Below, piece after piece: positions 7,485 through 35,204 of a DNA stretch of 60,716 nucleotides; the first letter of the stretch is position 1, and each line of letters begins with the position of its first letter. The translations under genes and the position numbers were made by a program. Under the pieces are notes generated by a model, which was given only the letters and a program-made list of their open reading frames with translations, searched no databases and was not told the DNA's origin. Source of the stretch: Candidatus Dormiibacterota bacterium (GTDB taxonomy: Bacteria; Chloroflexota; Dormibacteria; Aeolococcales; Bog-877). Location: positions 1 through 60,716 of the forward strand of contig DAHUYV010000072.1 of NCBI GenBank assembly GCA_027306885.1, given 5' to 3'.

Positions 7485-7487
7485 GAG

Positions 7488-12469: not shown

Positions 12470-13366
12470 TCACACCTCCTCGGCGGAGAGCCGCCGGACC
12501 GCCCGGGTCCAGCGCCGCGCCGCCGCCTCGGCACTGCTCTGGTAGTGGGTCGCCACGTTGAGGGCGCCGGGGACCCGGAGCATCAGGTACAGGCTGGCGA
12601 AGGCGTAGAGCATGCCGGCCAACCCGTGGCCCCGGGCGAAGGCCAGCTGCACCGCCACCCTCAGCACCAGCAGCTGCCCGAACTGCATGAAGAGGGAGAC
12701 CACCACCAGACGGCCCCACTGGCGGGCGAAGCCCCTTGTCTCGGGCAGCACCGTGCAGTAGGCGACCAGCGGAGCGCAGGCGCAGAGAACCGCCAGAAGC
12801 GTGTAGCGCACCACATAGCTCAGCGCCAGGATCACCACCGCCACCACCAGGGCGGCCGTGAACAGCAGGAGGAAGAGGTTGTCGGATGCCGACGCCACCG
12901 ACCCCGAGGTGAGGGGCGAGCTCCACGGCAGATCGGCGACATTCACGGCGGCGCCGCCCACCACCACCTGGCAGAGGGCGTTGTTGAGATCGATCAGCTG
13001 CTGGAGGAGGGGCAGGCTGGTGACGCTGAGCGCCACCGCCACCAGGCAGCGGGGGAGCACCGCCTGCAGGCTGTGGCGCACCCCACCGAAGTCGGCCACC
13101 GTGCGCAGCGAGCTGTACAGGACGATCGCCACCAGCAGAGCCGCCCCGGCCGCCGCCAAGAGGTGGTTGAGCGGCGCCAGCCCGGGGCTGTCGGTGAACG
13201 GCGCCTTGGGGTACGGACCCGCGGCGTCGTAGGTGCCGAACAGGTAGCTCTGGAGGGCGGCGTCGAGCGCCGACCGCGCGCTGGACACGAAGTCGGTGAG
13301 GGTCCCGGTGAGCAGGCTCACCAGGACGCCGAGCGGGTTGAGGGTGAACTGGGGCAGGCTGGGCAC
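12470..13366 (-). CDS. VirB6/TrbL-like polytopic membrane protein (module 1)
   Basis: About 7 TM segments with the TrbL-like pattern L..VVRYTLLAVL...APLVAYC.VLPETRGFARQWGR. It follows a pilin-like gene. Start estimated at GTG 13366. Confidence 0.65.
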   Translation of the reverse strand: MPSLPQFTLNPLGVLVSLLTGTLTDFVSSARSALDAALQSYLFGTYDAAGPYPKAPFTDSPGLAPLNHLLAAAGAALLVAIVLYSSLRTVADFGGVRHSLQAVLPRCLVAVALSVTSLPLLQQLIDLNNALCQVVVGGAAVNVADLPWSSPLTSGSVASASDNLFLLLFTAALVVAVVILALSYVVRYTLLAVLCACAPLVAYCTVLPETRGFARQWGRLVVVSLFMQFGQLLVLRVAVQLAFARGHGLAGMLYAFASLYLMLRVPGALNVATHYQSSAEAAARRWTRAVRRLSAEEV

Positions 13367-13380
13367 CGCCCGCGTGCCCC

Positions 13381-13620
13381 TCAGCCCGCCCCGTGAGGGA
13401 CCGCCGAGAGCAGAACGTGGGTCAGGACTCCGGCGAGCTCCACCCCAAGGGTCCCAAGGGCGATCCGCCCGAGCCAGCGCTGAGCCTCCAGGGCGCTGTG
13501 GGGGCTGGGGGCGACAACCCGCCAGACGAAGGCGCACACGAAGGCCAGGGTGCCGAGGCTGGCGATCAGCTCCTGGCCGAGCAGCACCCAGGAGTTGATC
13601 AGGGCGACCAGTTCAGGCAC
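13381..13620 (-). CDS. Small 2-TM protein, VirB2/TrbC pilin-like (module 1)
   Basis: 79 aa with two hydrophobic helices and a strong SD (GAGGAGG), immediately upstream of the virB6-like gene. The pilin call rests on size, topology and position. Confidence 0.5.
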   Translation of the reverse strand: MPELVALINSWVLLGQELIASLGTLAFVCAFVWRVVAPSPHSALEAQRWLGRIALGTLGVELAGVLTHVLLSAVPHGAG

Positions 13621-13701
13621 GGAATCCCTCCTCGCGGGCGGCGGATCCCCTCCTACGTCCGCTGGGCGGGTGCTTCCGGATCGGACCTTCTGCGGGGCCG
13701 A

Positions 13702-14172
13702 TCAGCCGCAGTCGGTCTCCCAGATCGGCTCGCCGACGCTCACCACCAGGGTGACGGGCCCGTCGTTGACCAGAGAGACCTCCATGTGGGCTCCGAAGCG
13801 GCCCTCCGCCACCGAGCGAACGCCGAGGGCCCGCAGCTCCTCGGCGAAGGCGGAGCAGAGCTCGGCGGCCATCACCGGGGGGCCGGCGCCCACGAAGGAG
13901 GGGCGATGACCCCGGCGGGCATCCGCGTACAGGGTGAACTGGCTGACCACCAACGCCTCACCCTGCGCGTCGAGCAGGGAGCGGTTCATGCGGCCATCGG
14001 AGTCCGGGAACACCCTGAGGCTCGCCACCCGGCCGGCGAGGTGTCGGGCCACCTGGGCGTCGTCGGCCGGGCCGACCGCCAGGAGGAACAGCAGGCCCTC
14101 GCCGATCTCTCCGACCGTCTCCCCCGCCACGGAGACCCCGGCCTGCGCCACCCGCTGGACCACCGCGCGCAC
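13702..14172 (-). CDS. dtd: D-aminoacyl-tRNA deacylase
   Basis: MRAVVQRV, SQFTLY, GRFGAHMEVSLVNDGPVT. Confidence 0.97.
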   Translation of the reverse strand: MRAVVQRVAQAGVSVAGETVGEIGEGLLFLLAVGPADDAQVARHLAGRVASLRVFPDSDGRMNRSLLDAQGEALVVSQFTLYADARRGHRPSFVGAGPPVMAAELCSAFAEELRALGVRSVAEGRFGAHMEVSLVNDGPVTLVVSVGEPIWETDCG

Positions 14173-14175
14173 CGG

Positions 14176-14772
14176 TCAGCCGATCGCTTGGAGCCCGCGG
14201 TAGATGCGCATGGCCTCGGCCGCGGCCTCGAGGAAGCCGCCCGCCTCCGCTCGCATTCCCTGCAGGGCGAAGCGCCACTGCCCCGGGGGGGAGGGGGGGC
14301 CGGGCAGGGTGCGTCCCCCGTAGCGCGGCGGATAGAAGGTGATCGTGCCCCGGGGCATGCGCTTGAAGATGGGGCTCGCCACCATCAGCTCGTCGATGGT
14401 TCGGGTGCCACTGACCGCACCCTCGATGAACTCGACACGGCGCTGCTTCCGAATCGGGTTGTCGGGATCGTCGAGGAGCACCCGGCCACCGTGCTCCCCG
14501 GTCAGCCCCAGCAGCCCGAAGCACACCGCCAGGGCGTCGGTCTCGTCGCCCTCGACCTTGACGAATCCCGCGCCCAGCACCGGCTCCCGGCAGTCCAGGC
14601 GGAGATGGCGCAGGTACTCTGACTCGAAGAGCCCCCGGGATCCGTCGGTCGCCAGCCACATGGCGGCATCCCTCCAGACCCTGGTCTCGGCGAACCGGCT
14701 CACCGCGTCGGCCCAGATCCCGGCGGTCGCTCGGCCAGGATTCAGCAGCCGGTAGCGCACCACCCGACCCAT
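14176..14772 (-). CDS. Hypothetical protein
   Basis: Clean ORF with a leaderless promoter (TAGAAT-N6-ATG), coupled to dtd; no recognised family. Confidence 0.65.
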   Translation of the reverse strand: MGRVVRYRLLNPGRATAGIWADAVSRFAETRVWRDAAMWLATDGSRGLFESEYLRHLRLDCREPVLGAGFVKVEGDETDALAVCFGLLGLTGEHGGRVLLDDPDNPIRKQRRVEFIEGAVSGTRTIDELMVASPIFKRMPRGTITFYPPRYGGRTLPGPPSPPGQWRFALQGMRAEAGGFLEAAAEAMRIYRGLQAIG

Positions 14773-14781
14773 GGGCCGATT

Positions 14782-16752
14782 CTATAGGTGCCCGTCGCGA
14801 GCGCCGAGTTTGAGTGATTCCCCAGATGTCGCCAGGTATGGATGACGATCCGGGCGGGCCTCGACCGAGAGCGGCACCCGCACCGCCCCGGAGACCAGGA
14901 GGAACTCCCCACGGCGAGCTCGCTGCAGCCACTCCCGGTCCCGGTCCTCGAGGTCGAAGGTGGTCTGCAGCCGCAGCGCTCCCCGCCCGCCCTGCCCTCC
15001 CAGCAGCACGGTCGCCGAATTGGTCGCCACCAGCTCGCCGAAGCTCTCCTCGGTCAGGTCCTGGGCCGCCTGGGTGAGAAGCAGCAGCGACCCCTGGTAC
15101 TTGCGGATGCGCCGAGCCATCTGTCCCATCAGCTCGCGCAGGCAGCGGTGGGCCCCGAGAAGTCCGGCCTCGTCGACGATGATCTGCTTGGCCCGCGGCT
15201 CCCGCCGGGCCCACGCCCACAGCCACTGTGAAACCAGCCAGGCGGCGCCAGGGATCCACGTGGACGGCAGCTCCCGGAGCCCGATCCCCAGCACTCCGTC
15301 CACCCCCGGCCCCCGCCCGGGCTGGTTGAACTGCCCCCCCGGCCGCCCCTCCAGCCACGGCCGAAGCCGGGCCGCCAGGGCTGAGGACTCGGGCCGCCGA
15401 CGCATCGGGGCCAGACAATCGCCGAGGACCGGGCGGGCCCGTCGCTCCGGCGCCAGGACCTCGGCGCAGGCCTCCAGAAAGCTGCCGGCCTCGGCGGCCG
15501 ACAGCGGGCCACCGAGGAGCGCGGCGAGTTCCAGGGCCGCGAGAGCCGCCTCACCGGGGTCGCCCGCCTCCAGCACGTTGAAGCCGAGGCTCTGGCCGGC
15601 CGCCAGATCCAGGTAGGTGCCGCCGGCGGCCTCGCACCAGCGGCGGTGCTCAGACTCCGGGTCGACCACCACGGTCAGGACCCCGCGGGAGGCCGCCTCC
15701 ATCCCCACCACCCCCGCGAGGTAGGACTTGCCCCCACCGGAGGTGGCGATGACGCAGCAGTTGCCGTTGGGCGTTCCCCGGAAGGAGGCTAGGCCGAGGC
15801 CCACCGGCCGCCCGGTGCGTCGGTGCCGGCCGACCCGGTACCGACCCGGCGCCATCTCGGCGGCTCCATCCAGCCAGGGCCAGAGGCTGGCCACTTCGCG
15901 GGTCTCCAGGAGGCGCCGCGCCGGCCGGGGCGGGAATCTCAGTCCCCGGCTCTCCAGCAACGCCGGCAGCTCCTCCAGCCAGGCCGGCGCGAGCCGGGCC
16001 CGGAGAGCGGCGGCCCGCTGCCGCAATCGCTGCTGACCGGCTCCGACCTCCGCCGGCGAACCGCCCAACGACAGCGTCACCGCCACCTCGAAGAGACGGC
16101 CCTCGCCGCGGGCCAGCACCTGCCTCAGCCGGTCGGCGGCCCTCCTGGAGGCCTCCAGAGCGGGGCCCGCCCCGCCGAGATCGCCGGCCAGGGCCCGCGC
16201 TTGCAGGCTGCGCAGCCGCCGCCGCAGCTGCCGGTCCGCCTCCGCCGCCGGCTTGGGCGCGATCGAGACCGTGAGGTCGAGGTCCGCTGGCTCCCCCAGC
16301 AGCTCCCAGAGCCATCCGGGCTCCACCTCGGCCTCCGGGAACCTCATGAGCCGCAGGCACTCGATCCAGCTGCCGCCGCAGGTCAGCCCCCGGGCGGATT
16401 CGTGCCAGGGGCCCTCGGCCATCGTGGGCAGCGCCCCGGCGCGGTTGACCTCGGCGTCGCAAAGGGCGCTCAGCCGGGCGGCGACCGAGTCGGCGGCCGC
16501 CTCGTCCCGCACCCGCAGGTGGACGCTCCGGACGCGCTCCCGCCCCGGGCAACCCCCGCTACTGTCCATCGCCTCGCGGGAACTGACGGTAAGTTGCGCC
16601 GGGGCCCGCAGCTGGTCAAGCCAGGCCGTGAAGCCGCCAAGGAGCCGCTCCCGGTGAGCCACGCTGGCGTCCAGGATGTCCGGCGCCCGAACCGTCCAGA
16701 GTGTCGAGGAGTCGGGGTCGCCCCCTTCCGGCCCTCGGGCCCCTAGGTCCAC
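14782..16752 (-). CDS. virB4: VirB4/TraE-like secretion ATPase (module 1)
   Basis: Walker A IATSGGGKSY, VVDPESE, Walker B IIVDEAG, ARRIRKYQGSLLLLTQ. The N-terminal region resembles Gram-positive VirB4. Start estimated at GTG 16752, overlapping the prgI-like stop. Confidence 0.85.
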   Translation of the reverse strand: MDLGARGPEGGDPDSSTLWTVRAPDILDASVAHRERLLGGFTAWLDQLRAPAQLTVSSREAMDSSGGCPGRERVRSVHLRVRDEAAADSVAARLSALCDAEVNRAGALPTMAEGPWHESARGLTCGGSWIECLRLMRFPEAEVEPGWLWELLGEPADLDLTVSIAPKPAAEADRQLRRRLRSLQARALAGDLGGAGPALEASRRAADRLRQVLARGEGRLFEVAVTLSLGGSPAEVGAGQQRLRQRAAALRARLAPAWLEELPALLESRGLRFPPRPARRLLETREVASLWPWLDGAAEMAPGRYRVGRHRRTGRPVGLGLASFRGTPNGNCCVIATSGGGKSYLAGVVGMEAASRGVLTVVVDPESEHRRWCEAAGGTYLDLAAGQSLGFNVLEAGDPGEAALAALELAALLGGPLSAAEAGSFLEACAEVLAPERRARPVLGDCLAPMRRRPESSALAARLRPWLEGRPGGQFNQPGRGPGVDGVLGIGLRELPSTWIPGAAWLVSQWLWAWARREPRAKQIIVDEAGLLGAHRCLRELMGQMARRIRKYQGSLLLLTQAAQDLTEESFGELVATNSATVLLGGQGGRGALRLQTTFDLEDRDREWLQRARRGEFLLVSGAVRVPLSVEARPDRHPYLATSGESLKLGARDGHL

Positions 16753-17027
16753 CGCGCCTGGTCCAGCCGCTGCGCGAGCCGGCGCCCGGCCCACCCCACC
16801 AGGCGCAGCGACCAGAGGGAGAACGGGACTTCGAGCAGGCGGCCCCAGGCCAGCAGCGCGGCGGCCCCCAGCACGGCGCTGGCCAGCCCCACCCGCAGCC
16901 CCTCCGGCAGGGGGGCCCGGAGCATCGCCGCTCCGACTGCCAGGGCGGCACCGAGGACCGCCAGGCGGCCGGCCGTCAGGCCCAGCGCGAATGGCTCCTC
17001 CCGCTCTCGACCGTCGCTGAAGGTCAC
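16743..17027 (-). CDS. PrgI/VirB3-like small membrane protein (module 1)
   Basis: REEPFALGLTAGRLAVL followed by two TM helices and a P motif; directly upstream of virB4. Confidence 0.65.
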   Translation of the reverse strand: MTFSDGREREEPFALGLTAGRLAVLGAALAVGAAMLRAPLPEGLRVGLASAVLGAAALLAWGRLLEVPFSLWSLRLVGWAGRRLAQRLDQARWT

Positions 17028-17258
17028 GTTCTTAGAGCAGCGAGGTCCGATCTCGCCATGGTCGTGCCCTCGGCCGGCAGCCCGGCCGGTGGGGCTGAAA
17101 CGGCTGGGAGCGCCGCCATCCCTCTCTTGCCGACCTCCAAGGCGAGCCCTCCTCCGCTGGCCATCTCCCCGTCTGTCAGTCCTCCGGGCGCGGGGGCCCG
17201 GGCGGCGGCGGCGAAGGCACGTCCGGTGGCGGGTGTCCCTGGGGTCAGATCCTCTCGG

Positions 17259-17597
17259 TCAGGGGCGCCTCAGCTCCACGGTGAAGCCCAACGTCTGAGC
17301 GGCCAGCCGGGGCTCCTTGGTCACCCGAACCACCGCGCCCTCGGCCCCGGGAAGCGCCAGCACGGCGTCCGCGATCTTCCCGGCGAGCGCCTCCAGGAGC
17401 TGGCAGCTGGGACCCTCCACCTGGGCCCGCACCGCCGCCTCGATCACGGAGTAGCTGAGGGTGTCCTCCAGCCGGTCACTGGCCGCGGCCGGCGCGAGGT
17501 TGCTCGCCACCTCCACATCGACGACGAAGTGGGAGCCAAGTTCGCGCTCCGCCTGGTGAACGCCGTGGCGCCCGAAGTACCTGAGGCCGGAGAGCAC
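17259..17597 (-). CDS. folB: Dihydroneopterin aldolase
   Basis: LSGLRYFGRHGVHQAERELGSHFVVDV, TLSY, LLEALA and VRVTKEP. Confidence 0.93.
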   Translation of the reverse strand: MLSGLRYFGRHGVHQAERELGSHFVVDVEVASNLAPAAASDRLEDTLSYSVIEAAVRAQVEGPSCQLLEALAGKIADAVLALPGAEGAVVRVTKEPRLAAQTLGFTVELRRP

Positions 17598-17641
17598 CAG
17601 GTGGTCTCTGGTCCGGTCGGCCGGCTCCCCGTCCCCTCCGG

Positions 17642-18088
17642 TCAGGAAGCGGGGCCCGGAGGTGAGTCGACCGCCTCTATGGAGTCGATGTGCAGCACCT
17701 CGCGCCGGTTGTCCCGGGTGGGGAAGAGCAGCACCAGGGTTTGGGAGAGGGCCGCCACCACCTGGCCCACGTCGCCGACCGCGATGGTGGTGATCGGCTC
17801 GCCGGTGCTGTGCCGGACGACGTCGGTCACCCGCACCCAGCTCCCCGGGGGCCAGCGCATCTCCGGGGTGAGCTCGTCGGGTCCCAGGTCCTCAGGCGAG
17901 ACGTTGCTGCGGTTCCCCCCCCATGGCCGGGGCGGTGACGGCCGGGCCGCCGGCCGCGGCGCCGGGACCGCCTCCTCGAGCTCCTCCGGCTCCTCGGGGA
18001 GCTCGTCCCCAACATCGGAAGCGCCGGCGTCGGCGCCCGGCGCCGGCTCGATGTCGGGCTCGTCGTTCTCGGGGGGAGTGGTGGCCAT
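17642..18088 (-). CDS. Hypothetical protein (acidic disordered N-terminus, small beta-barrel-like C-terminus)
   Basis: ATG with SD GAGGA; the C-terminal GSWVRV...GDVGQVV...LVLLF pattern is SH3/KOW-like. Confidence 0.6.
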   Translation of the reverse strand: MATTPPENDEPDIEPAPGADAGASDVGDELPEEPEELEEAVPAPRPAARPSPPRPWGGNRSNVSPEDLGPDELTPEMRWPPGSWVRVTDVVRHSTGEPITTIAVGDVGQVVAALSQTLVLLFPTRDNRREVLHIDSIEAVDSPPGPAS

Positions 18089-18153
18089 GATCCTCAGCAT
18101 TCCGGGTTTCCGCAGACTCGCCTCAGCCTAGCATGCCACTGCGGCGGCCCCGG

Positions 18154-18561
18154 TCACTCCTCGCTCACGGAGGCGATCCGCCACAGCTCCCCGGTGATCT
18201 CGACGCCCACCCTCAGCTGGACCGCGTCATCGGCCGACGCCGGCGTGATGCCCGCAGCCATGAAACTGGTTCGGTCGCGGTACCGGACCCGGAGCCAGAG
18301 CGAGCTCGAGCTGCCTCCGGGCGCCACCTCCAGGTGCAGAGACTCGCGGAACGGACTCACTTGGATGCCCGCCATCTGGTAGGCCTGGAAGCGGGCCTGG
18401 ACCTCGCTCAGGGCGTCGCCGGTGAGGGCCTGTCCCAGCCGAGCCAGGTTCCCCGTGGTCGCCGCCTCATCGACCACCGCCAGCGCCCGGACCAGCTCGG
18501 TCCGGGCCCGCTCGGCGATCTGCGGCACGCTCGCCCGCCGGCGCAGCGGGAGGTTGGGCAC
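18154..18561 (-). CDS. Hypothetical protein, possibly NTF2-like fold
   Basis: Helical N-terminal half followed by beta-strands ending WRIASV. GTG start just after the upstream stop. Confidence 0.55.
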   Translation of the reverse strand: MPNLPLRRRASVPQIAERARTELVRALAVVDEAATTGNLARLGQALTGDALSEVQARFQAYQMAGIQVSPFRESLHLEVAPGGSSSSLWLRVRYRDRTSFMAAGITPASADDAVQLRVGVEITGELWRIASVSEE

Positions 18562-18568
18562 GACCGGC

Positions 18569-19216: not shown

Positions 19217-19265
19217 CAGCCCGACCCCGCCGCCCGCCGCAGACCCAGCCCGGCTCGGACCCCGG

Positions 19266-21562: not shown

Positions 21563-21592
21563 CCCCAGATTCTATTGCGGTGCGGGCCAGAG

Positions 21593-21805: not shown

Positions 21806-21813
21806 CACCCCAC

Positions 21814-24478: not shown

Positions 24479-24516
24479 CCTCCCCGGTGCCCCTGCAAGT
24501 ACAGCATCATGGCAGC

Positions 24517-25982: not shown

Positions 25983-25996
25983 GGTGCCGGCCCGGA

Positions 25997-26299: not shown

Positions 26300-26493
26300 G
26301 AGGCCGCCCCGGGGCGGCGGGCCGGGGCGGCATGCGTCTCCGACCGCGCGGCGCCCACCGCCCTGGAGGGGGTCTTTCCCCGGGGTCCGGGCGGAACGAG
26401 GATGGCGGCTCCGAGGAGGGCGAGCGCGCCCAGGTGGTGGCGCCGCCCCTCGCCGCCCCAATCCCGATCTCTGCCCAGATCCGCCGCGGTCAA
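26296..26493 (-). CDS. Candidate 65-aa small protein
   Basis: TTG after SD GAGAGGA; the stop overlaps the next GTG (GTGA); one hydrophobic patch. Confidence 0.3.
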   Translation of the reverse strand: MTAADLGRDRDWGGEGRRHHLGALALLGAAILVPPGPRGKTPSRAVGAARSETHAAPARRPGAAS

Positions 26494-26669
26494 TGGCTTC
26501 CTCTCGGTCTCCTGCTGGTCGCGATCCGCCTCCCCAGAGTGGTCTCGGAGGAATCGGGGCTGGCGCCTGAGATTGTCCGGGAAAACCGCTGTCGGCGGGT
26601 CGAGCGGGTTGCCCGTCGCGGCGCAGCGCTCGCGCCGAGGGGGGTGGTGGAAGGGGGATCCCCGGCCGA

Positions 26670-27917
26670 CTACGGCTGGGCCAGCGCCGAGCGTCCGGGG
26701 CGCCGGCCGAAGCACGGGATCAGCAGGACCCCAGCCACCAGGTACGAGGCCGCCATCACCGTGAACCCGGCCCCGAAGCCCAGGTGTTGGATCACCTGGC
26801 CCAGTCCCACGATCCAGAGGGAGCCGACGCCGTATGAGAGGGCGAAGTAGATGCCGAACATGCTGGCCTGGGCTGAGCTGGTCACGCTGTCGCTGACCAG
26901 GGCCTGGAGCAGGGGGTTCTCCACATAGGCGACCAGTCCCACCACCAGGGCCAGGGCGGCGATGCCCGCCAACGGGAGCGACGAGGCCAACCCGAAGGAG
27001 AGCACCGCCACGGCCGAGAGCGCGTACGCCGCCCACAGCACCGGGACCCGGCCCAGGCGGTCCGAGAGGAGCCCCCCGAGGATGGGGCCGAGAACCGCGC
27101 CGAGCAGCATGAGGTTGAAGATCACCCCGACGGTCGTCTCGGGGAGGTGCACACCGTTGCGCAGGTAGAGCGGGACGAAGGCGTTCAGGGTGCCCAGCCC
27201 CCGGCCGCCGGCGGCCACGGTCGCCGCGATCACGCCCAACACGGCGACCCTCGGATCGATGAGCTGCTGGCGACTGAAGCGAGGCAGGCGGGGCCGCAGC
27301 CCAAGGCGTGGGAGCCCGGACTCCCGGTCCCCGGGGACCGGGGGGAAGGTGAGCAGCAGGATCAGGCCGAGGAGGAAGAGCGGCGCCGCCAGCGCCAGCA
27401 GGGTTGGGCGCCAGCCCAGGCGGCTGATCATCAGCGCAGCGGGGATGGGGATGATCAGCGACCCCACGCCTCCTCCGATGGTGGTGATGCTGAGCGCGGT
27501 GCCGCGCCGTTCCGGATACACCCGCGTGGCCACCGAGCTGCCCACCGGATGCTGCTGGCTGGAGGCGAGCAGGGCCAGTCCCTGCCCGGTGGCGAAGACC
27601 CCGAAGTTCGGGGCCAGCGAGCCCACGATGGCGCACAGCCCGACCACCAGGTTCTGGCAACCGAGGATCCACCGCGCCGCCACCCGCCTCCCCACGTAGC
27701 CCGCGCTGGCCTGGGTCAGGCCACCCACCACTCCTATGACCCCGACCGCCAAGCCCAGCGTCGCGTAGTTGAGGTGGAAGTCGATGAGGACCGCGGGGTA
27801 GGTGAGCGGGATCAGCGCCGAGTACATGTGCTGGCCGGCGTGGGAGGTGGCCACGAGGCCCAGCGCCCGGCGGCGGCGCACCCCAGCCAGCTCTCGCGGC
27901 TCCTGGGTGACCTCCAT
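26670..27917 (-). CDS. MFS transporter
   Basis: About 12 TM segments, motif A-like GGLLSDRLGR and QHP; ATG after TATCCT-N7. Confidence 0.9.
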   Translation of the reverse strand: MEVTQEPRELAGVRRRRALGLVATSHAGQHMYSALIPLTYPAVLIDFHLNYATLGLAVGVIGVVGGLTQASAGYVGRRVAARWILGCQNLVVGLCAIVGSLAPNFGVFATGQGLALLASSQQHPVGSSVATRVYPERRGTALSITTIGGGVGSLIIPIPAALMISRLGWRPTLLALAAPLFLLGLILLLTFPPVPGDRESGLPRLGLRPRLPRFSRQQLIDPRVAVLGVIAATVAAGGRGLGTLNAFVPLYLRNGVHLPETTVGVIFNLMLLGAVLGPILGGLLSDRLGRVPVLWAAYALSAVAVLSFGLASSLPLAGIAALALVVGLVAYVENPLLQALVSDSVTSSAQASMFGIYFALSYGVGSLWIVGLGQVIQHLGFGAGFTVMAASYLVAGVLLIPCFGRRPGRSALAQP

Positions 27918-27946
27918 TGGCCCCAGGATACGGGCGGCCCCCCCGG

Positions 27947-28615
27947 TCACTGAGGCGGCGAGCGTCCGTAGATGAAGCCGGCCAGCCGCTCGACGGTGCT
28001 TCCGCTGGAGGCTGCCGCGACACCCCGAAGGTCGACGAACGGGGCGGCCGGCCCCGGGAGCGCCCAGTTGGCCTCCGCCACTGTGTACGCTCCATCGGCC
28101 GCCACCCCGACGACGAAGGCCACGTGCCCGGGCCCGGCGTCGGTGTAGACCGCGATCGCGCCGAGCTCCGGCGCTGGTCCCACCATGTACCCGGCGGCGG
28201 CCGCCAGCGCCAGCCATTGCCCGCCGTTCCCTCCCAGCAGCCCCTGCGGGGTTCGCCAGGTCACCAGGCGGCGGGTGGCGACGTACCAGGTGCACTGGCC
28301 CGTGGCGAACCCCTGGTAGTCATAGGGGTAGGGGTACGGATGCCCGGTGCACGCCGACGGTTCGAGGGCCAGGGCGCCTGGCTCCGGGCCGCAGGGAAGC
28401 GCCCAGGCCGGGAAGCTGGGGCTGCCGGCCAGCAGGACTGCGCCGGGCCCCAGCATCATGCCCCCGGGTCCCGGCAGCAAGCCCCCCAGTGCCGGCCACC
28501 CCGCGGCGGCGGCCCCCGCCCCCAGCAGGCCGAGCACGGACACCACCGCCACCGCCGGAACCAGGCAGCCCGCCGCCAGCAGGGGCCCGGTCCCGGCCAG
28601 CAACCCCCGCCTCAA
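27947..28615 (-). CDS. TM-anchored CHAP domain cell-wall hydrolase (VirB1-analogue of module 2)
   Basis: FATGQCTWYV, GNGGQW, GHVAFV and AGFIYG; TTGA overlap with the virB4 stop. Confidence 0.85.
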   Translation of the reverse strand: MRRGLLAGTGPLLAAGCLVPAVAVVSVLGLLGAGAAAAGWPALGGLLPGPGGMMLGPGAVLLAGSPSFPAWALPCGPEPGALALEPSACTGHPYPYPYDYQGFATGQCTWYVATRRLVTWRTPQGLLGGNGGQWLALAAAAGYMVGPAPELGAIAVYTDAGPGHVAFVVGVAADGAYTVAEANWALPGPAAPFVDLRGVAAASSGSTVERLAGFIYGRSPPQ

Positions 28616-30840
28616 GGGTGTCCCGGGCCGGCAAGGTGCCCGGTCAGCAGCGCCCTCTGCCAGGCCGGGGGGGCTGCCCCGCGGAAGGCGGCCCGCTCCT
28701 CCCCCACCAGCACCAGGCCGGAGCCGGCCTCGACCCCCTGGAGCAGCTCACATTCGGCCGGAGAGAGGGAGAAGGCCCGCCTCAGGGAGGGGATGGCCAC
28801 CGGCTCCTGCCGCAGGAGCAGCTTGGTGTGGCAGTTGCGGATGATCACGTTGCCGACGGTCGAGCCGAGAAAGTCCTCCACCACCTGGGAGACCACCAGC
28901 AGGCCGGCGCCCAGCTTTCGGATGCGCCGCGCCATCGCCTCCAGGAAGTGGGCGCTGGATTCCGACGAAAGCAGGATCTCGGCCTCATCGACCACCAACA
29001 GCGTAGGCAGCGCCGATCGGGCTTCCAGCTCCGCCTCCAGGTGCCACAGGACGAGCTCCATCGCGGTGCCCAGGAGTTGGTCGCGTCCGGCCTGGAGATG
29101 GCGCAGGGAGATGACGGCGACATCGCCCGCGGGGGGTGGCCCCGCCCCGTCGAAGATCCCGCTGTCGGCGCCGCCGAGATAGCTCTCCAGCTGGTGGGCG
29201 GGGCGCTCCAGACCCGCCTGGCGCAGCCGGTCCACCAGGGCGGCCAGACTCGCCCCGACCGGGTCGGCTCTGAGCAGAGCCTCGACGACCTCGCCCAGCC
29301 GTTCGCGGGGCTGGGGCCCGAGCTGGATCCCCCTCGCCGCCAGGGCGCGCGCCACCAGACCCGCTGCCCGGCTGGCTCGGCGGGCCGGGTCCTGACCCGG
29401 CGCCGCCGGCCCCAGTGGGTTGAGGCCCGCAGTGCCCGCGGCGCCGAGCTCGACCACGCTCCCACCCAAGAGGTGGGCAAGCTCCAGGTACTCGCCGGAG
29501 GGGTCCAGGCAGCGGATTCGGCAGCCCGAGATCGCCAGCCGGGCGGCCAGCACCTTGGTGGTGTAGGACTTGCCAGCGCCCGAGGTCCCGAGGACCACCA
29601 CGTTGCGATTGGGATTCGCGGCGGCCAGGAGGTCCACCGAGATCAGCTCTCGGGACACCGGGCTGGGCCCGAGCAGCACCCCCGACCCTGTGCTCAGGCC
29701 GGCGCGGAGGAATGGCAGTGCCGTGGCCGCCGCCCCCGCGGTCATGTCCCGGGTCCAGCCCAGCGGGTCGATCCCGGCGGGCAGGGTCGCCCGCCACCCA
29801 TCCACCTGGCGATTGGTGAGGGGGACGGGGGTGCATCCCAGCTCCGCCAGGGAGGCGATCAGGCGGTGCCAGGCGGTGTCCAACTCCTCCTTCGTGGCCG
29901 CCTCCAGGGTGATGCAGGTGAGCATCCGGAAGAGCCGTTCCTCCTCCAGGAGCACCCGCTCCTCCAGCGCCAGGGCATCTCCCAGCGCCGCCCGAGTGCC
30001 GGTGTCGGGTCGGCGCCCTCGCCGGCGGTCGACCTCGAGCCCGGTTTCGAACGAGCGAATCCGCCGGCGCAGATGTCCGAGGCTGGCCAGCTTGGGGATC
30101 GGGTACAGGTGCTGGGCGAGGCGCAGCGGACACGGCGGGCCGAGCACCACGGGGGCGAGCCAGCCCACCGCCAGCCGGCGTGGGTATCCCTGCACAACCA
30201 GACTTCGGCACACCCGGCCCGGGCAGACCAGCTGGTCCGCCTCCACCACGGCGGAGTCGGGGGCGAGCCAGCTGGGAAAGTCGGCAGGAACCCTGCCGCT
30301 GCGCCCACCGGTGTGTTCTTGCAGCAGCCCCAGCCACGTGCCGTCGCTCACCGGCCGGCAGTGCAGCCCCGCCCCCTCGAAGCTTGCGGCGAGCGCCTGT
30401 CGGCGCCGTTCCAGATCTATCGGTGCTCTGGGTGCGCGCCGAAAGGCCGAGAGGGCCCCGAGGGTGCCAGGCGCCGGGTCATCCCAGATGACCGCCAGAT
30501 GTCTTCGGGCGTGGATCGTGCCCCGGCTCAGAAGCTCTCTGGCGAAGGCGGAGTCCGCCTTCGCCTGGGGGCCGCTCGACCCCGGCGAAGCGCCGGGGGG
30601 CGGCAGTGGCCGTGAGTATGTGTAGAGGGAGATCGAACCCGCCAGGGCCGAGAGGGCCCTCCGGTAGCGCCTCCAGACCAGGTCCCGTTCGGCATCGCCC
30701 TTGAGGATGAGGTTGACGGCATCGACCTCGAGAGCGGCCCGCCGCCTCCCGTCTCGGAGCTCGGCCCAGCCGCCATCGATGCGGGTGACGTCGACGAGCT
30801 CGGTGGTGCTCGAGTGCCGGCCGCCGCTCCGGTGGCTCAA
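28612..30840 (-). CDS. virB4: VirB4/TraE-like secretion ATPase (module 2)
   Basis: NRNVVVLGTSGAGKSY, LDPSGEY, LLVVDEAE, ARRIRKLGAGLLVVSQ and LLRQ. TTG start overlaps the prgI-like stop. Confidence 0.92.
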   Translation of the reverse strand: MSHRSGGRHSSTTELVDVTRIDGGWAELRDGRRRAALEVDAVNLILKGDAERDLVWRRYRRALSALAGSISLYTYSRPLPPPGASPGSSGPQAKADSAFARELLSRGTIHARRHLAVIWDDPAPGTLGALSAFRRAPRAPIDLERRRQALAASFEGAGLHCRPVSDGTWLGLLQEHTGGRSGRVPADFPSWLAPDSAVVEADQLVCPGRVCRSLVVQGYPRRLAVGWLAPVVLGPPCPLRLAQHLYPIPKLASLGHLRRRIRSFETGLEVDRRRGRRPDTGTRAALGDALALEERVLLEEERLFRMLTCITLEAATKEELDTAWHRLIASLAELGCTPVPLTNRQVDGWRATLPAGIDPLGWTRDMTAGAAATALPFLRAGLSTGSGVLLGPSPVSRELISVDLLAAANPNRNVVVLGTSGAGKSYTTKVLAARLAISGCRIRCLDPSGEYLELAHLLGGSVVELGAAGTAGLNPLGPAAPGQDPARRASRAAGLVARALAARGIQLGPQPRERLGEVVEALLRADPVGASLAALVDRLRQAGLERPAHQLESYLGGADSGIFDGAGPPPAGDVAVISLRHLQAGRDQLLGTAMELVLWHLEAELEARSALPTLLVVDEAEILLSSESSAHFLEAMARRIRKLGAGLLVVSQVVEDFLGSTVGNVIIRNCHTKLLLRQEPVAIPSLRRAFSLSPAECELLQGVEAGSGLVLVGEERAAFRGAAPPAWQRALLTGHLAGPGHP

Positions 30841-31214
30841 GGTCCGGTCCCGGCGGCCGGGGCGGCGTTCCAGGGCAGGGGACCACGGCTCGACGGGCCT
30901 TGGTCCACCCAGCGGTATCCCCCAACCTGGGCCACCGAGTCGGGGTGGGAGAAGCGGTGCGGCTGCAGGCGAAAGAGGATCGCGTCCAGGAGGTAGACGT
31001 CCAGCCGGCGGCCGTGGCGGAGCCCGAACCCCAGCGCGGCCGCGATCGAGGCCCAGGGAGCGCTCAGGGTCACTAGCGGGGCCAGCCCGAGATGCAGGCG
31101 AAAACAGGCCAGAGGGACCGCTCCGGCGACCGCGAGCCAGCCGAGCTGACCCGTGGTCAGCCCGCCCCACCTGGAGGGCAGGTTCGAGATCGGCTGGGGA
31201 ACCTCGGCTTCCAT
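30837..31214 (-). CDS. PrgI family (VirB3-like) membrane protein (module 2)
   Basis: EVPQPI...RWGGLTTGQLGWL, two TM segments, GRRLDVYL..AILF...P; TGATG overlap with virB6. Confidence 0.8.
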   Translation of the reverse strand: MEAEVPQPISNLPSRWGGLTTGQLGWLAVAGAVPLACFRLHLGLAPLVTLSAPWASIAAALGFGLRHGRRLDVYLLDAILFRLQPHRFSHPDSVAQVGGYRWVDQGPSSRGPLPWNAAPAAGTGP

Positions 31215-33373
31215 CAACTACCGCCAGTTGGGTCCGGTGTCGGGCGGGATGAGGGGCGGAGCCGCCCGCGTCTGAGGGCGTTGAGGTAGGCGACGTCGAT
31301 CTCGTGGATCTGGGAGCCTCCGGCCATCTCGTAGCGCTGGCCAAGGCGCACAAGGGACCCCTGCGCGTCCGGCCCCGCCGACAGGGTCCGCAGGCTCGCC
31401 AGCTCCTCGTCACCCAGGCCCAGCCGGCTGCGCAGCTCGTCCGGGTGCCCCCGACCATCGGCGAGCCAGCGGCCGATGAACTCGTGCCGCGACTCTCGCC
31501 CCTCGACCGAGGGCCAGTGGGTCGCGCCGAGCAGCCCGGCCTGCTCCAGCTGGCTCGCCGTCGCGATGTCCGGGGGGGCCGGGCGCCCGAGGACAGCCGC
31601 TGAGCTCCGCTGCAGGCGGGACCCGAAGCGCATCGCGCGCGGGGTCCCCTCCTGGTTCACCAGCAGCGCTCCGCCCAGCACGACGCCTCCGGTCACCTCC
31701 GCCAGGCGGCGCAGCCGGTGGGTGGTGGAGAGCTCGCCCCGGCTGATCCGACCGGGCACCTCCAGCATCAGCCACACCGTCACCGCCGCCAGCAGGCACT
31801 TGGCGAACTGGTCGCCCGGGTTCCCGCTGCCGACCTCGGCGAGCAGGCCCTGGGTGGCGGCGCCGCAGCCCTGATTCCCGCTCTGGGAGATCAGCGGACA
31901 GGGCCCGTGGGCAGCCACCGGGGCCAGCCCCGACACCGTGGACACGACGGCCACGAAGGCGAGGAAGATGAGGGTCTGGACCACGACGACCGCCGAGAGG
32001 GCACCAATAGTGGCCCAGTACCGGGCGAACAGCGGTCGGCCCCCGGGAAGGGCGAGCGCCACGAACGCCAGGCTGGAGCACCCGGCCAGGAGCGCCAGCA
32101 CGATGAAGCGGGCGAGGTAGGTCAGGGCCAGCCACAGCCCGAGCCCGGTGAGCACCGTGAACGCCAGCAGGCCGACGAGGCCGTCCGGGACGTCGTAACC
32201 ATTGCGTCCGTGGGGCCCCACACCGGACCACACGTCGGTGTAGGTGGGGACCGTGCCCCAGTAGATGTCGGCGTAGCGGCAGTCCGCCGGACTCTGCCCG
32301 TTCCCCGCCCGCGGCTCGCCGGACAGAGGGAGCAGCCCCAGCTGCGGGGACCCCACATCGGAGCCCCCCGAGCCCTCCAGACAGTCCTGCCCCTGGTTGG
32401 AATTGACCTGGTTGTCGGTGTTGTCACAGAGCGGCTGCCCCGGGGCCGCGTCGCCACGGTCGCAGTTGGCGTCGTGGAGCGGCGGGCCGAAGAAGTTCTC
32501 ACTTCGATCGAGCACCTCCTTGGCGAAGTCGGGGCTGCTGGCCCCGATGCAGTGCGATTGGGTGAAGCGAGGGTCCATCCAGGGGTCGACCAGCACCTGC
32601 TGTCGAGGCGAGGGACCGGGAAGTGAGAGGTGGATGCCCGGGTGGATGATCGGGCTGTCCTCTGGGCAATAGGCCGTGATCGCCAGGACCGTCATCATGT
32701 CCAGGGGCTGGGCCTGGTGGCCACCGAGCTCGTGGAAGGACTCCTGGAGGATCCCGCCGGCGAGCCAGCTCCCGGCGTCGATGAGCCGGCCGGCGAGGTG
32801 GAGTGGAAGTCCCGCTCCGAGCACCGCCGCCGCCACCAGGCAGGGGACGATGCCCTGGCGCAGGTTCAGCTGCTGACCGGCCATGAACAGGGAGACCTGG
32901 ACGGCGAAGGCGATCACGAGCAGGGCCAGCGCCAGCGGCACCAGGATCTGGTTGAGGCGCTGGACCCAGGGTATGCAGCCCCCGGGCCCGCACTGATGGG
33001 CCGGTTCACCAAGGCTGCCGTCGTAGTTGTCGACCACCGGGTTGGTTCCAACCAGGGTTGTGATCAGATGCCAGGGGCCCGAGGTCACTGCTCCCGTCGT
33101 GGGGTCGATGTGGGCTGGGTCCGGACTGCCGTCGAGGCTGCCCATGATCGCCACCGGGCCCGAGACGAAGGCGTCGATCACGTAGCAGAAGGGGTCCGTG
33201 ATGCCCCCGCACTGCTGGCTGGTGCTGGCGGCCACCGTCTCGGCGGGGGCGGGGGCCGGCTGCACAGCGCTCAGCTGAACCGCGGTGGCGGGCCGCGGGC
33301 CCAGTGCCAGGGCGCTCCAGGTCAGCGCCGCCAGCCCGAAGCCGGTCCGCCTCAGGGTCCGTTGGCGGAGCAA
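31214..33373 (-). CDS. Large VirB6/TrbL-like membrane protein with Cys-rich extracellular loops (module 2)
   Basis: Signal-like N-terminus, several TM segments, the TrbL-like LARFIVLALL...LAFVALALPGGRPLFARYW core, 15 Cys; lies between the pilin-like and prgI-like genes. Confidence 0.72.
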   Translation of the reverse strand: MLRQRTLRRTGFGLAALTWSALALGPRPATAVQLSAVQPAPAPAETVAASTSQQCGGITDPFCYVIDAFVSGPVAIMGSLDGSPDPAHIDPTTGAVTSGPWHLITTLVGTNPVVDNYDGSLGEPAHQCGPGGCIPWVQRLNQILVPLALALLVIAFAVQVSLFMAGQQLNLRQGIVPCLVAAAVLGAGLPLHLAGRLIDAGSWLAGGILQESFHELGGHQAQPLDMMTVLAITAYCPEDSPIIHPGIHLSLPGPSPRQQVLVDPWMDPRFTQSHCIGASSPDFAKEVLDRSENFFGPPLHDANCDRGDAAPGQPLCDNTDNQVNSNQGQDCLEGSGGSDVGSPQLGLLPLSGEPRAGNGQSPADCRYADIYWGTVPTYTDVWSGVGPHGRNGYDVPDGLVGLLAFTVLTGLGLWLALTYLARFIVLALLAGCSSLAFVALALPGGRPLFARYWATIGALSAVVVVQTLIFLAFVAVVSTVSGLAPVAAHGPCPLISQSGNQGCGAATQGLLAEVGSGNPGDQFAKCLLAAVTVWLMLEVPGRISRGELSTTHRLRRLAEVTGGVVLGGALLVNQEGTPRAMRFGSRLQRSSAAVLGRPAPPDIATASQLEQAGLLGATHWPSVEGRESRHEFIGRWLADGRGHPDELRSRLGLGDEELASLRTLSAGPDAQGSLVRLGQRYEMAGGSQIHEIDVAYLNALRRGRLRPSSRPTPDPTGGS

Positions 33374-33639
33374 CTGCTAGTGGTGCACGCGGTGTTGTTG
33401 CCCGACAGCCCTTCGACAAAAGAGAGGATGGCGCCCTCGTTGACCAGCAAGAGGACGCCGAGGAGGACGGTGATCAATCCCTGGATCGCCGCCGCTCGCC
33501 GCTGGCTGTTGTCCAGGGAGGTCATGTAGCGGATGGCGGCGAAGCTGAGGCAGAGGACCGCCACCGCTCCCAGGGCGAGCGTCGTGACCGTGTGGATGAC
33601 GTTGTCCAGCCCGGTGGCGAAGCTGGCGAGGACGGTCAC
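33352..33639 (-). CDS. Small 2-TM pilin-like protein (VirB2/TrbC-like; module 2)
   Basis: 95 aa with two hydrophobic helices separated by RYMTSLDNSQRRAAA; GTGA overlap with virD4. Confidence 0.6.
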   Translation of the reverse strand: MTVLASFATGLDNVIHTVTTLALGAVAVLCLSFAAIRYMTSLDNSQRRAAAIQGLITVLLGVLLLVNEGAILSFVEGLSGNNTACTTSSCSANGP

Positions 33640-35204
33640 CCCGGTTTCTCCGGGAGGGCGGCGACCGGGGAGCGGCTCCATACCAGCGGCCCCCTGGGGG
33701 AGGGGAGCCGCTGGGAGGCGATCGGCTGTCCGGGCGCCGGGCGCGGCGGCTCCCACTCCCCTCCCGGCCGGGTCGCCTGCCAGCGCAGGCGACCATCTTG
33801 GAACCAGGGACGCTGGCGGATGACCGCCGGGTGGTCGCTGCCCCGGAGAACCAGGGCCCGACCGGCCCGCAATCGGCGGATCTCGTCGGGCGGGATCAGC
33901 GAATGGGGGCCGAGGGGGTCTCCCCGGCGCCCGGCGCCGCCGTGCAGCGTCGCCGCGCCCGCCAGTCGGCTGGCGCGCTCCAACAGGTCCACCTCAGATA
34001 TCCCCGGCAGGAGCATCTTGGTGCGGCAGTTGGCCCAGAGGGCGGTGACGGTGTCGGACCCGTAGAGCGACCCGATCGAGGCGAGGTCCTGGGCCAGCAG
34101 GATCATTCGCACCCCCTGAGTCCGGCCCAACTGGACCAGCGAGGGCAGCTCCGGAAGGGCGGTCAGCTGGGCGAACTCGTCGAGAACGAAGAGAACCGGG
34201 ACCTTGGGCGGATCGGCGAACACCGCCCGCCAGCACGCCGCCAGCAGGGCGCTGAGCAGTCCCCGCAGCAACGGCGCGTCCGGCGGACTCACCACGCAGT
34301 AGAGGGTGGCCAGGCCACCGTTGGCGACCGCTGTGGGGTCGAACGTGCTGGTGGAGGTGCAGGAGGCGACCTGCCCGGTTCCGAAGACCCCCAGCCGAGC
34401 GACCAGGGTGGCCACGACCCCCATCGCGGTGCGGTCGCCGCCGCTCAGGGCGCCCTGAACCAGGCTCCGGGCCGTCGGATGGAGGACCTCCCCCGCCACC
34501 TCCTCCGCGGGGACCTGCTGGAGCAGGGCCAGGAGCTGGGGGAGGGTGAGGCCGGCGAAGGCCGCCTCCACCAGGAGGCCGTGCAGCAACTGAAGCGCCA
34601 GTTCGTGCCAGAAGGGCTCTCGCTCCGGGGGCTTGCCCATGAGGAATCCGGCGGTCCGCAGCGCGTCCTCAGAGCTGGAGATGGCGGCGACGGGATTCCA
34701 GCGGTCGCCGGGCGCCATCAGGGGTGCGAACACCGCCGCCGCGCCGCGCTCGCGCCGGGCGCCGATGGTCCTCTCCAGGAGCTCACCCTTCGGGTCGGTG
34801 ACTATCACCGCACCCGGCCACTCCAGGATCGCCGGGATCGCGATCGAGCTGGACTTCCCAGATCCCGTCGGCCCCAGAACCAGCAGGTGCTCGTCCTCGG
34901 GCAGGAACAAGGGCGAGGAGCGAGCGGTGCCCAGCCGCACGCGGGCCCCGTCGCCCCGGTGCCGATGCAGGGCCCTGAGGTCCCACCAGCGAGCGTGGCG
35001 GGCGCGGCCAAGGGGCCCGGGGCGGAGGGGCGACCTCTCCCCGCTGAACCAGACCAGGGCGAGGCCGGCCGCCTCCAGTCCTCCGAGAAGGGCCAGCGGG
35101 CCGGCCGGGCCCGTTCCGCTGCGCAGGCTGGCGGCGAGGACCGCGACCGTGACCATGGCGGCGGGAATCGCCAGCGCGGCCAGCTCCCCCTGCCTCTTCT
35201 CCAC
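33636..35204 (-). CDS. virD4: Type IV coupling protein (VirD4/TraG)
   Basis: Two N-terminal TM segments, HLLVLGPTGSGKS, VIVTDPKGEL, LFVLDEFAQL, GRTQG..ILLAQ and LIPPDEIRRL. Confidence 0.93.
   Translation of the reverse strand: MEKRQGELAALAIPAAMVTVAVLAASLRSGTGPAGPLALLGGLEAAGLALVWFSGERSPLRPGPLGRARHARWWDLRALHRHRGDGARVRLGTARSSPLFLPEDEHLLVLGPTGSGKSSSIAIPAILEWPGAVIVTDPKGELLERTIGARRERGAAAVFAPLMAPGDRWNPVAAISSSEDALRTAGFLMGKPPEREPFWHELALQLLHGLLVEAAFAGLTLPQLLALLQQVPAEEVAGEVLHPTARSLVQGALSGGDRTAMGVVATLVARLGVFGTGQVASCTSTSTFDPTAVANGGLATLYCVVSPPDAPLLRGLLSALLAACWRAVFADPPKVPVLFVLDEFAQLTALPELPSLVQLGRTQGVRMILLAQDLASIGSLYGSDTVTALWANCRTKMLLPGISEVDLLERASRLAGAATLHGGAGRRGDPLGPHSLIPPDEIRRLRAGRALVLRGSDHPAVIRQRPWFQDGRLRWQATRPGGEWEPPRPAPGQPIASQRLPSPRGPLVWSRSPVAALPEKPG

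Follow-up and report, generated by a model that had tools for sequence, protein, structure and literature searches.

The window analysed here (60,716 nt, positions 1 to 60,716 of contig DAHUYV010000072.1, assembly GCA_027306885.1, Candidatus Dormiibacterota bacterium) carries on its minus strand two gene sets of a monoderm-type type IV secretion system (T4SS). Module A (12470-17027) encodes a PrgI/VirB3-like protein, the ATPase VirB4-A, an orphan protein (hereafter referred to as u198), the housekeeping enzyme dtd, a 79-aa hairpin protein with two transmembrane (TM) segments and a TrbL_4/VirB6-like protein. Module B (26670-35204) encodes VirD4, a T4SS_pilin-like protein, a 719-aa VirB6, PrgI, VirB4-B, a CHAP hydrolase and an MFS transporter. 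The two sets are separated by 10.9 kb (17027 to 27947), and there is a single VirD4. We consider it likely that both modules are a domesticated, vertically inherited, MPF_FATA-like T4SS apparatus of the class Dormibacteria, rather than a mobile element or the remnant of one. The components belong to identifiable T4SS families, the ATPase motifs are intact, the locus is fixed in the chromosome, its genes diverge together with their neighbors under purifying selection, and no mobility genes are linked to it. Such an apparatus would depend on contact and transfer a macromolecule through the envelope.

In a collection of 5.8 billion proteins, VirB4-B had 25 relatives at 50-99% identity, with the next at 34%, and VirB4-A had 25 relatives at 44-96%, followed by one at 38% and then by others at about 30%. 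When 1.84 billion cluster representatives were scanned exhaustively with HMMER, no more than three clusters gave >45% identity to VirB4-B, and homologues at least 44% identical to either VirB4 bore, where named, Dormibacteria names only. An actinobacterial origin, at first presumed because of the GC content of 73%, was rejected on the basis of these names. Synteny between the contigs of these relatives and the window extended beyond 20 kb, in the order fumC, PBP1A, response regulator, virD4, pilin, virB6, prgI, virB4, CHAP, MFS, UbiA and hemE, continuing with CHAP, SLT, M20, OSBS, three unknown genes, folB, prgI, virB4-A, u198, dtd, hairpin, trbL_4 and ispH. The middle CHAP gene was used as the anchor in a scan of GTDB species, each represented by one genome, with ±10 kb fetched; this returned 61 loci (individual loci are designated below by L and a number). 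About 33 of these were the orthologous locus with interleaved housekeeping genes (dtd, folB, hemE and UbiA), one of them in a closed 2.49-Mb chromosome; the others corresponded to a paralogous PcsB-like gene and are uninformative as to the presence of the T4SS. Both VirB4 genes lay within the fetched ±10 kb in 19 of the approximately 33 species representatives.

The linkage extends to deeper lineages. In a more distant one (VirB4-B at 46% identity; L072:732-4382), the order is PrgI, VirB4-B, an extra Peptidase_M23, CHAP and MFS, then hemE, response regulator, CHAP, SLT and M20. A sister clade of VirB4-A (bootstrap value of 100) retains VirB4, u198 and a nearby dtd, and a search of metagenomes with a u198 profile yielded at least 265 relatives; a VirB4-A-type gene was present in 58 of the 80 loci fetched, and dtd in 38. 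An earlier reading of the window, made from the sequence only, had asked for a check of synteny among relatives and had named patchy presence at close relatives as a sign of mobility. Conserved synteny was found in about 33 species representatives and in deeper lineages, and the departures from this fixed context were replacements of module genes at single loci (L014, L045, L016 and L062). As for the closed chromosome (L020, OY969577.1), the locus occupies positions 98607-119608 of 2486370, about 100 kb from the start of the record; should dnaA mark the start of the record, the system would be origin-proximal, as reported for the T4SS genes of Patescibacteria. Among the species-representative MAGs (metagenome-assembled genomes) with a locus of the Dormibacterota type, several (L029, L033, L045, L058 and others) have record titles naming Micrarchaeaceae, Acidiferrales, Nanopelagicaceae or Binatia, and these records are probably mislabelled.

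The ratio of nonsynonymous to synonymous substitutions (dN/dS) was estimated by the Nei-Gojobori method for 13 species pairs (dS of about 0.1-0.7). In module A, it was 0.03 for the hairpin, 0.09 for TrbL_4, 0.10 for u198, 0.19 for the PrgI-like protein (PrgI-A) and 0.20 for VirB4-A. In module B, the values were 0.05 for the pilin-like hairpin, 0.07 for the CHAP hydrolase (CHAP-B), 0.13 for both VirB6-B and VirD4, 0.18 for VirB4-B and 0.18-0.20 for PrgI-B. Overall, the T4SS genes ranged from 0.03 to 0.20, versus 0.15-0.20 in the housekeeping genes dtd (0.20), folB (0.15) and hemE (0.16), and near-identical relatives gave the same picture. These values are far from 1, so the neutral decay envisaged as a counter-indication was not borne out. 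Pairwise protein distances for VirB4-A and VirB4-B tracked those of the concatenated, linked housekeeping neighbors (Pearson r of 0.96 and 0.98, slopes of 1.4-1.6), in line with the congruence that had been sought, and the distances of the two VirB4 proteins were correlated with each other (r = 0.98). The Walker A, Walker B, TQ/SQ and RK (arginine-finger) regions were conserved in both VirB4 clades (28 sequences per clade). The most conserved parts of the system were those exposed at the surface, namely both hairpins and the ecto-domains of VirB6: the mean column identity of the hairpins was 87-90% across species whose VirB4 proteins are 45-60% identical.

Pfam searches of the genes called across the 60-kb window detected no relaxase, integrase, transposase or replication domain, and the window also contained no tRNA, no Rfam family and no att-like or long direct repeats, with short imperfect repeats only. 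These profile, tRNA, Rfam and repeat searches thus bear out the lack of mobility features first noted from the sequence. No relaxase was found within ±10 kb of 150 related loci. Three Replic_Relax relaxases used as tblastn queries gave no match in the 80 u198-bearing metagenomic loci, and no type IV coupling protein (T4CP) of the type found in integrative and conjugative elements (ICEs) lay within ±10 kb of those 80 loci. The GC content of the window is 73%, with 0.70-0.75 in the T4SS region versus 0.67-0.74 elsewhere, and the third-position GC content (GC3) of the T4SS genes (0.82-0.90) is similar to that of neighboring genes, in agreement with the host-like composition initially suggested. 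Taken with the synteny, co-divergence and dN/dS of 0.03-0.20, this upholds the proposal of a vertically inherited apparatus rather than an ICE or plasmid.

Genes were called from GC3 and a six-frame likelihood plot, as spurious frames crowd lists of the longest open reading frames (ORFs), and were named by Pfam and NCBIfam profile searches; PHROGs added nothing of use. The frame and GC3 analysis and the profile searches confirmed the two same-strand T4SS sets, about 11 kb apart, with a single VirD4. By contrast, lengths taken from the longest ORFs were too long (948 aa for VirB4-B, versus a true length of about 742 aa, with TrbL_4 likewise overstated), and the first gene list had overlooked the conserved CHAP gene (27947-28603), the MFS gene coupled to it (26670-27950) and the 198-aa orphan (14176-14772). 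All the ORFs of both modules are intact.

Module B begins in related loci with virD4, here a coupling protein of 522 aa (33636..35204, minus strand, as for all the module genes) and the sole T4CP of the window. It matched T4SS-DNA_transf (PF02534, E = 2e-41), TrwB_AAD_bind (PF10412), TraG-D_C (PF12696), the NCBIfam model conju_CD1115 (E = 7e-35) and, in the PDB, TrwB (E = 1e-6). The next gene encodes a VirB2-type, T4SS_pilin-like hairpin of 95 aa (33352..33639), with a match to PF18895 (E = 2.7e-5) at 24.6 bits, slightly short of the 26.6-bit cut-off; this protein also matched the NCBIfam Mbov_0395 pilin-like family (E = 3e-4), could be aligned colinearly with the T4SS_pilins of ICEs and is 79-93% identical across species. 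The extended VirB6-like protein of 719 aa (31214..33373) had no Pfam match, and was identified by hhalign comparison with the TrbL profile (95.5% probability, E = 1.5e-8, residues 398-544). It has a signal peptide and two Cys-rich ecto-domains, in which 51-61% of the columns are invariant, versus 14% in the cytoplasmic C-terminal tail. The PrgI/VirB3-like protein of 126 aa (30837..31217; PF12666, 28.5 bits for a cut-off of 27) overlaps each of its neighbors by 4 nt. VirB4-B, of 742 aa (28612..30840), matched P-loop_TraG, AAA_10 and DUF87 in Pfam and conju_CD1110 in NCBIfam (E = 9e-48); among solved structures, its closest relative is the VirB4 of Thermoanaerobacter (PDB 4AG5, E = 7e-25). In all related loci, a CHAP-domain peptidoglycan hydrolase that would play the role of VirB1 (27947..28603; Pfam CHAP, E = 2.7e-16) is encoded directly downstream of VirB4-B and is followed by the MFS transporter (26670..27950; MFS_1, E = 1.7e-45). 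The start of the MFS gene overlaps the CHAP stop by 4 nt in the window and also in L069 and L072, a sign of translational coupling. Most of the gene junctions of module B are such 4-nt start/stop overlaps, and the module therefore reads as one operon. Divergent from virD4 is a gene for a stand-alone response-regulator receiver (35357..35839, plus strand; Response_reg, E = 8e-15), which keeps the same divergent position in L001, L003 and L069 and is, by association, a possible regulator. No VirB7, VirB9 or VirB10 domains were seen in the window.

The upstream end of module A abuts folB (17259-17597). Its PrgI/VirB3-like protein, with two TM segments and 94 aa (16743..17027), had no Pfam match and was recognized by hhalign comparison with the PrgI profile (95.4% probability, E = 2e-8). 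The gene for this protein overlaps the start of VirB4-A (about 656 aa, 14782..16752, with the longest ORF extending to 16794), which scored above the cut-offs of AAA_10 and P-loop_TraG in Pfam and matched the VirB4/TraC families of NCBIfam. It is followed by the gene for the soluble, 198-aa u198 (14176..14772), found with VirB4-A, and by dtd (13702..14172), a D-aminoacyl-tRNA deacylase gene (Tyr_Deacylase, E = 4e-50) and a housekeeping gene within the module A operon. The position of dtd is identical in all related loci, and its linkage to VirB4-A and u198 persists in deep lineages. Next come the genes for the 79-aa hairpin (13381..13620) and for a VirB6-like polytopic membrane protein of about 298 aa, TrbL_4 (12470..13366; PF19597, E = 7.6e-8, 32.5 bits for a cut-off of 27), the start of which was chosen from the length of its orthologues and which is 57-80% identical among related genomes. 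The intergenic gaps of module A are mostly 3-14 nt, and the module itself contains no T4CP gene and no hydrolase gene. The hairpin is 77-92% identical across species (mean column identity of 90%), and profile comparisons with T4SS_pilin, the module B pilin and ICE pilins gave no significant match. Its candidacy as a pilin was dropped on these grounds. The description of both sets as containing pilin-like genes thus stands for module B, through PF18895 near the cut-off, whereas the module A protein is pilin-like by size, topology and position only.

The u198 family was seen only with Dormibacterota-type VirB4-A genes and has no Pfam, NCBIfam or PHROG match. The protein is strongly conserved, its invariant features being an acidic GDETD motif, D102, K109 and R111. 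An AlphaFold2 model built from 48 sequences (pLDDT of 88.9, pTM of 0.83) looks like two ferredoxin-like alpha/beta units, and the protein may be a new fold or an enzyme. Comparison of the model with the PDB yielded no neighbor better than E = 0.24 and no match to the NTF2/VirB8 fold. Assignments of u198 as VirB8-like, TrsD-like or relaxase-like were rejected, given the lack of PDB matches at E < 0.2, of family matches and of an HUH motif.

The counterparts in the two modules are highly divergent. VirB4-A and VirB4-B are 27% identical (E = 5e-22), the VirB6-like pair (TrbL_4 and the extended VirB6) gave a BLAST match of 64 residues (E = 3e-5), the two PrgI-like proteins displayed marginal mutual similarity, and the two hairpin proteins did not match each other. 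It was therefore correct that the paralogues share little beyond family motifs. However, the old duplication read from this divergence was not recovered by phylogenetic analysis. In a neighbor-joining tree of 236 VirB4 proteins (530 columns, 100 bootstraps), each Dormibacterota clade was monophyletic, with a bootstrap value of 100, but the two clades were not sisters, and bootstrap values along the backbone were low (12-47). Two separate acquisitions would, from these sequences, be just as possible as one duplication. The nearest outside VirB4s, at 30-34% identity, were those of L006, L068 and L074 (an Acidimicrobiales MAG, another contig and a 1-Mb contig), all within classic ICE-like clusters in which genes for pilin, TrbL, PrgI and VirB4 are accompanied by those for a large T4CP, a Replic_Relax relaxase and a wall hydrolase; methylases, a PIN toxin, a resolvase, ArdC or a primase are encoded nearby. 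VirB4-B had 796 matches on plasmids, mostly conjugative plasmids of Firmicutes, at no more than 36% identity, and VirB4-A was almost without plasmid relatives. The best NCBIfam models, CD1110 and CD1115 (CTn2), were matched far below the family cut-offs (163 versus 325 bits for VirB4-B, and 121 versus 250 bits for VirD4).

The best named outside match of VirB4-B was a Patescibacteria VirB4 (P0100; 31% identity), the locus of which (L071:6659-12518) encodes PrgI, VirB4 and a large M23 protein beside dnaN and dnaA. This affinity was not reciprocal in BLAST ranks, and the Dormibacterota clades formed separate long branches outside the Patescibacteria cluster of the VirB4 tree, with weak support. 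The order PrgI-VirB4-M23, found in both the deep Dormibacterota locus and the Patescibacteria locus, may be a shared gene-order trait, and an evolutionary link to the Patescibacteria T4SS is plausible.

In terms of mechanism, module B would be a complete, minimal export translocon of the Gram-positive style. The CHAP hydrolase would open the wall, and the membrane channel would be made up of VirB6, VirB3 and the VirB2-like hairpin, with VirB4-B energizing it and VirD4 recruiting a cytoplasmic substrate and feeding it into the channel for export. Module A would be a second, separately evolving translocon, with the make-up of the archaeal Ced/Ted importers. We tentatively suggest that the apparatus might allow kin cells to exchange chromosomal DNA, in which case module B would be the donor, dependent on its T4CP, and module A would import the DNA or act as a docking partner. 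This analogy is drawn from Ced/Ted, a domesticated chromosomal conjugation machinery with no relaxase and no VirD4, consisting of a VirB4-like ATPase, a VirB6-like channel, and small two-TM proteins that include one VirB2-like pilin; of the two systems, Ced takes up DNA following UV damage (Beltran et al. 2023, PMC9905601). Module A is likewise chromosomal, with a VirB4, a VirB6, two small two-TM proteins and no T4CP. The match to these archaeal systems is one of architecture, not of sequence, and module B, unlike Ced/Ted, has a T4CP. A kin or self target would be preferred over varied prey or hosts because the surface-exposed parts are the most conserved. A bolder and rather doubtful proposal is that Dormibacteria possess a bacterial counterpart of Ced (module B as donor, and module A with u198 as importer or docking partner) and that these modules and the T4SS of Patescibacteria go back to a single domestication in the common ancestor of Chloroflexota, Dormibacterota and Patescibacteria, rather than to later separate transfers.

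Export of protein effectors or another contact-dependent export, chiefly by module B with VirD4, in antagonism, nutrient acquisition or adhesion, is a possible alternative, albeit one that we would not expect to prevail. The models for it are the Patescibacteria T4SS, the bacteria-killing T4SSs of the Xanthomonas type and the type-IVC system of Streptococcus suis. The Patescibacteria T4SS is chromosomal, usually relaxase-less, MPF_FATA-related and phylum-wide, and includes VirB4, PrgI/VirB3, VirB6, VirB2-like pilins and wall hydrolases (Quinonero-Coronel et al. 2025, PMC12102498). Its genes are reported to be essential for epibiotic growth in one species (PMC12102498; PMC12857230, citing Wang et al. 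2023). The Dormibacterota system is, similarly, chromosomal, relaxase-less and lineage-wide, and several of its features would suit effector export: the presence of a T4CP, the extended VirB6 with its large ecto-domains and, in the deep lineage, the M23 peptidase after VirB4-B, as in the Patescibacteria locus. However, no candidate effector or immunity genes were linked to it at any locus, the surface parts are under very strong purifying rather than diversifying selection, and the approximately 2.5-Mb genomes of Dormibacterota are not those of reduced epibionts. The two systems also differ in that there are two diverged modules here rather than one, VirD4 is tightly linked here and usually remote in the candidate phyla radiation (CPR), each module has one highly conserved pilin-like gene rather than several divergent ones, and u198 is specific to the Dormibacterota system. 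The Streptococcus type-IVC T4SS is described as a minimal set of a VirB1-like CHAP protein, VirB4, VirB6 and VirD4 (PMC3464263). Module B resembles this system and the CTn2-type MPF_FATA systems in having the same minimal set, but those systems are located on genomic islands or ICEs.

It is unlikely that the two modules are sub-assemblies of one composite machine, built around a pair of VirB4 paralogues and a single VirD4 on the model of the vir homologue (rvh) T4SS of Rickettsiales (PMC2653234). The rvh system is vertically inherited, chromosomal and relaxase-less, with its genes scattered among housekeeping genes, duplicated components including VirB4, and one VirD4. It is, nevertheless, a diderm P-type system of obligate intracellular hosts, with VirB8-11 and an outer-membrane core and without PrgI, CHAP or T4SS_pilin families. 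The Dormibacterota T4SS genes resemble those of rvh in that they are inherited vertically among housekeeping genes, with VirB4 present twice and VirD4 once. The occurrence of both modules within 23 kb in 19 species representatives, the covariation of VirB4-A and VirB4-B distances (r = 0.98) and the single T4CP and single dedicated hydrolase would fit such a machine. However, each module has its own VirB3, VirB4, VirB6 and hairpin, with counterparts no more than 27% identical, one module can be absent from the locus while the other stays, and deep lineages hold VirB4-A and u198 without module B nearby.

The readings as an ICE or a decaying relic are contradicted by the fixed synteny, the co-divergence, the selection and the contrast with the ICE-like outside relatives. 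The actinobacterial-type ICE clusters of L006, L068 and L074 contain the same families in the same local order (pilin, TrbL, PrgI, VirB4, wall hydrolase), but occur in variable contexts, and the Dormibacterota modules lack their Replic_Relax relaxase, large T4CP, methylases, toxin-antitoxin, resolvase and primase. It is thus very improbable that one or two ICEs, with a relaxase, oriT, integrase and att sites, extend just beyond the window. Every component does come from families typical of Gram-positive ICEs and plasmids, and the relaxase search reached the window and ±10 kb of related loci. Nonetheless, the same context, with essential genes interleaved, recurs in about 33 species and in deeper lineages, the VirB4s co-diverge with housekeeping genes, GC and GC3 are host-like, and there is no integrase, tRNA or repeat in 60 kb and no relaxase within ±10 kb of the 150 related loci. 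The modules could also be functionless, decaying relics of ancient ICEs, in line with the missing relaxase and with a few individual MAGs that have lost a module or VirB4-A, but this is extremely improbable given the intact ORFs, the dN/dS of 0.03-0.20 over pairs with a dS of 0.1-0.7, the catalytic motifs kept in 28 sequences per clade and hairpins 87-90% identical across deep divergence.

Several observations weigh against a domesticated, vertically inherited T4SS. The co-divergence test rests on linked genes. As the relaxase search covered the window and ±10 kb of related loci, a distant relaxase elsewhere in the genome is possible. No VirB8-like component (PrgL/TraM, NTF2-like) was detected in the window by Pfam or NCBIfam, in a search made with sequence profiles and the u198 structure model only. 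In the deep lineages, no TrbL or pilin was recognizable beside VirB4-A, and VirB4-A could thus have a role outside the classical T4SS; in two of these loci (L090:4650-7542 and L073:63-3069), a gene for RcpC/CpaB, involved in Flp/Tad pilus assembly, lies directly upstream of the VirB4-A-type gene, and a fusion of PrgI to VirB4-A was looked for in these lineages and not found. Finally, a CO-dehydrogenase (cox) cluster takes the place of module B in L014 (1-7993) and L045, an ABC transporter takes that of module A in L016 (16237-20984), and in L062 (1796-2371; JBJKSO010000081.1) a small hydrophobic ORF, in a sequence without Ns, replaces PrgI-A and VirB4-A between folB and u198, with u198, dtd, the hairpin and TrbL_4 retained. 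The modules are therefore separable at these four loci, and either strict donor/importer pairing is not obligatory or these MAGs carry the genes elsewhere.

The region between the modules contains three conserved unknown genes, an OSBS/NSAR enzyme, an M20 peptidase, SLT, a PcsB-like CHAP protein, hemE, a UbiA prenyltransferase and a small membrane protein. The initial description of the flanks as core metabolism requires correction for dtd, which is inside module A, and folB, which abuts it. The three unknown genes (17642-19216; 152, about 135 and 215 aa), located between the OSBS/NSAR gene and folB, encode proteins with no TM segments and no family matches, and are syntenic in all related loci. 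The OSBS/NSAR-family enzyme (TIGR01928, above the cut-off) is encoded beside an M20 deacylase (19266-21562), with dtd (13702-14172) in the same region; these genes may reflect a theme of D-amino-acid handling or, with the nearby UbiA-family gene, menaquinone synthesis. We also considered a peptidoglycan-recycling island (SLT, CHAP, M20, MR_MLE and MFS) serving the T4SS, and rejected it: the MR_MLE gene is OSBS/NSAR (TIGR01928) and the MFS protein matches AmpG weakly. Two PcsB-like proteins, with a signal or TM segment, a coiled coil and a CHAP domain, are encoded at 1975-3141 and 22406-23374, the second being 57-84% identical among relatives and followed by the SLT gene; neither is counted as part of the T4SS, and both probably act as hydrolases in cell division or wall remodelling. 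Elsewhere in the window, a conserved cluster (3124-8786) encodes a membrane protein, DUF4129, DUF4350, a MoxR AAA+ ATPase and DUF58/VWA, and is also present beside ispH in L005. A GT4 glycosyltransferase gene lies beside that of a Lip_A_acyltrans-family acyltransferase (41831-43922), a pair recalling actinobacterial PimA and PatA, of phosphatidylinositol-mannoside synthesis, and which may hint at the envelope type. GC content drops to 0.67-0.68 over 53931-58712, where the genes for a LytTR response regulator and a histidine kinase are accompanied by those for an acetyl-CoA synthetase and an acetate channel of the SatP/YaaH type; this stretch looks like an acetate-use unit.

A full-text literature search for Dormibacterota together with T4SS found no description of such a system, the phylum being mentioned in a T4SS paper only as a sister lineage of Patescibacteria. 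The suggestion that the system is undescribed therefore holds for Dormibacterota, but the kind has precedents in the T4SS of Patescibacteria, in Ced/Ted of archaea and in rvh of Rickettsiales. These three are the few conjugation machines owned by their hosts, as such machines usually belong to mobile elements. If the Dormibacterota modules are indeed domesticated, monoderm T4SS domestication would not be confined to epibionts or intracellular bacteria, and a free-living, globally distributed soil phylum would have retained two such machines under strong purifying selection, in operons shared with essential genes. The conserved hairpins, the Cys-rich ecto-domain of VirB6 and u198 would provide targets in the search for the substrate of relaxase-less T4SSs of the Gram-positive type. 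As Patescibacteria have been placed as the sister group of Chloroflexota and Dormibacterota (PMC12102498), the finding would also bear on the origin of the essential T4SS of Patescibacteria.

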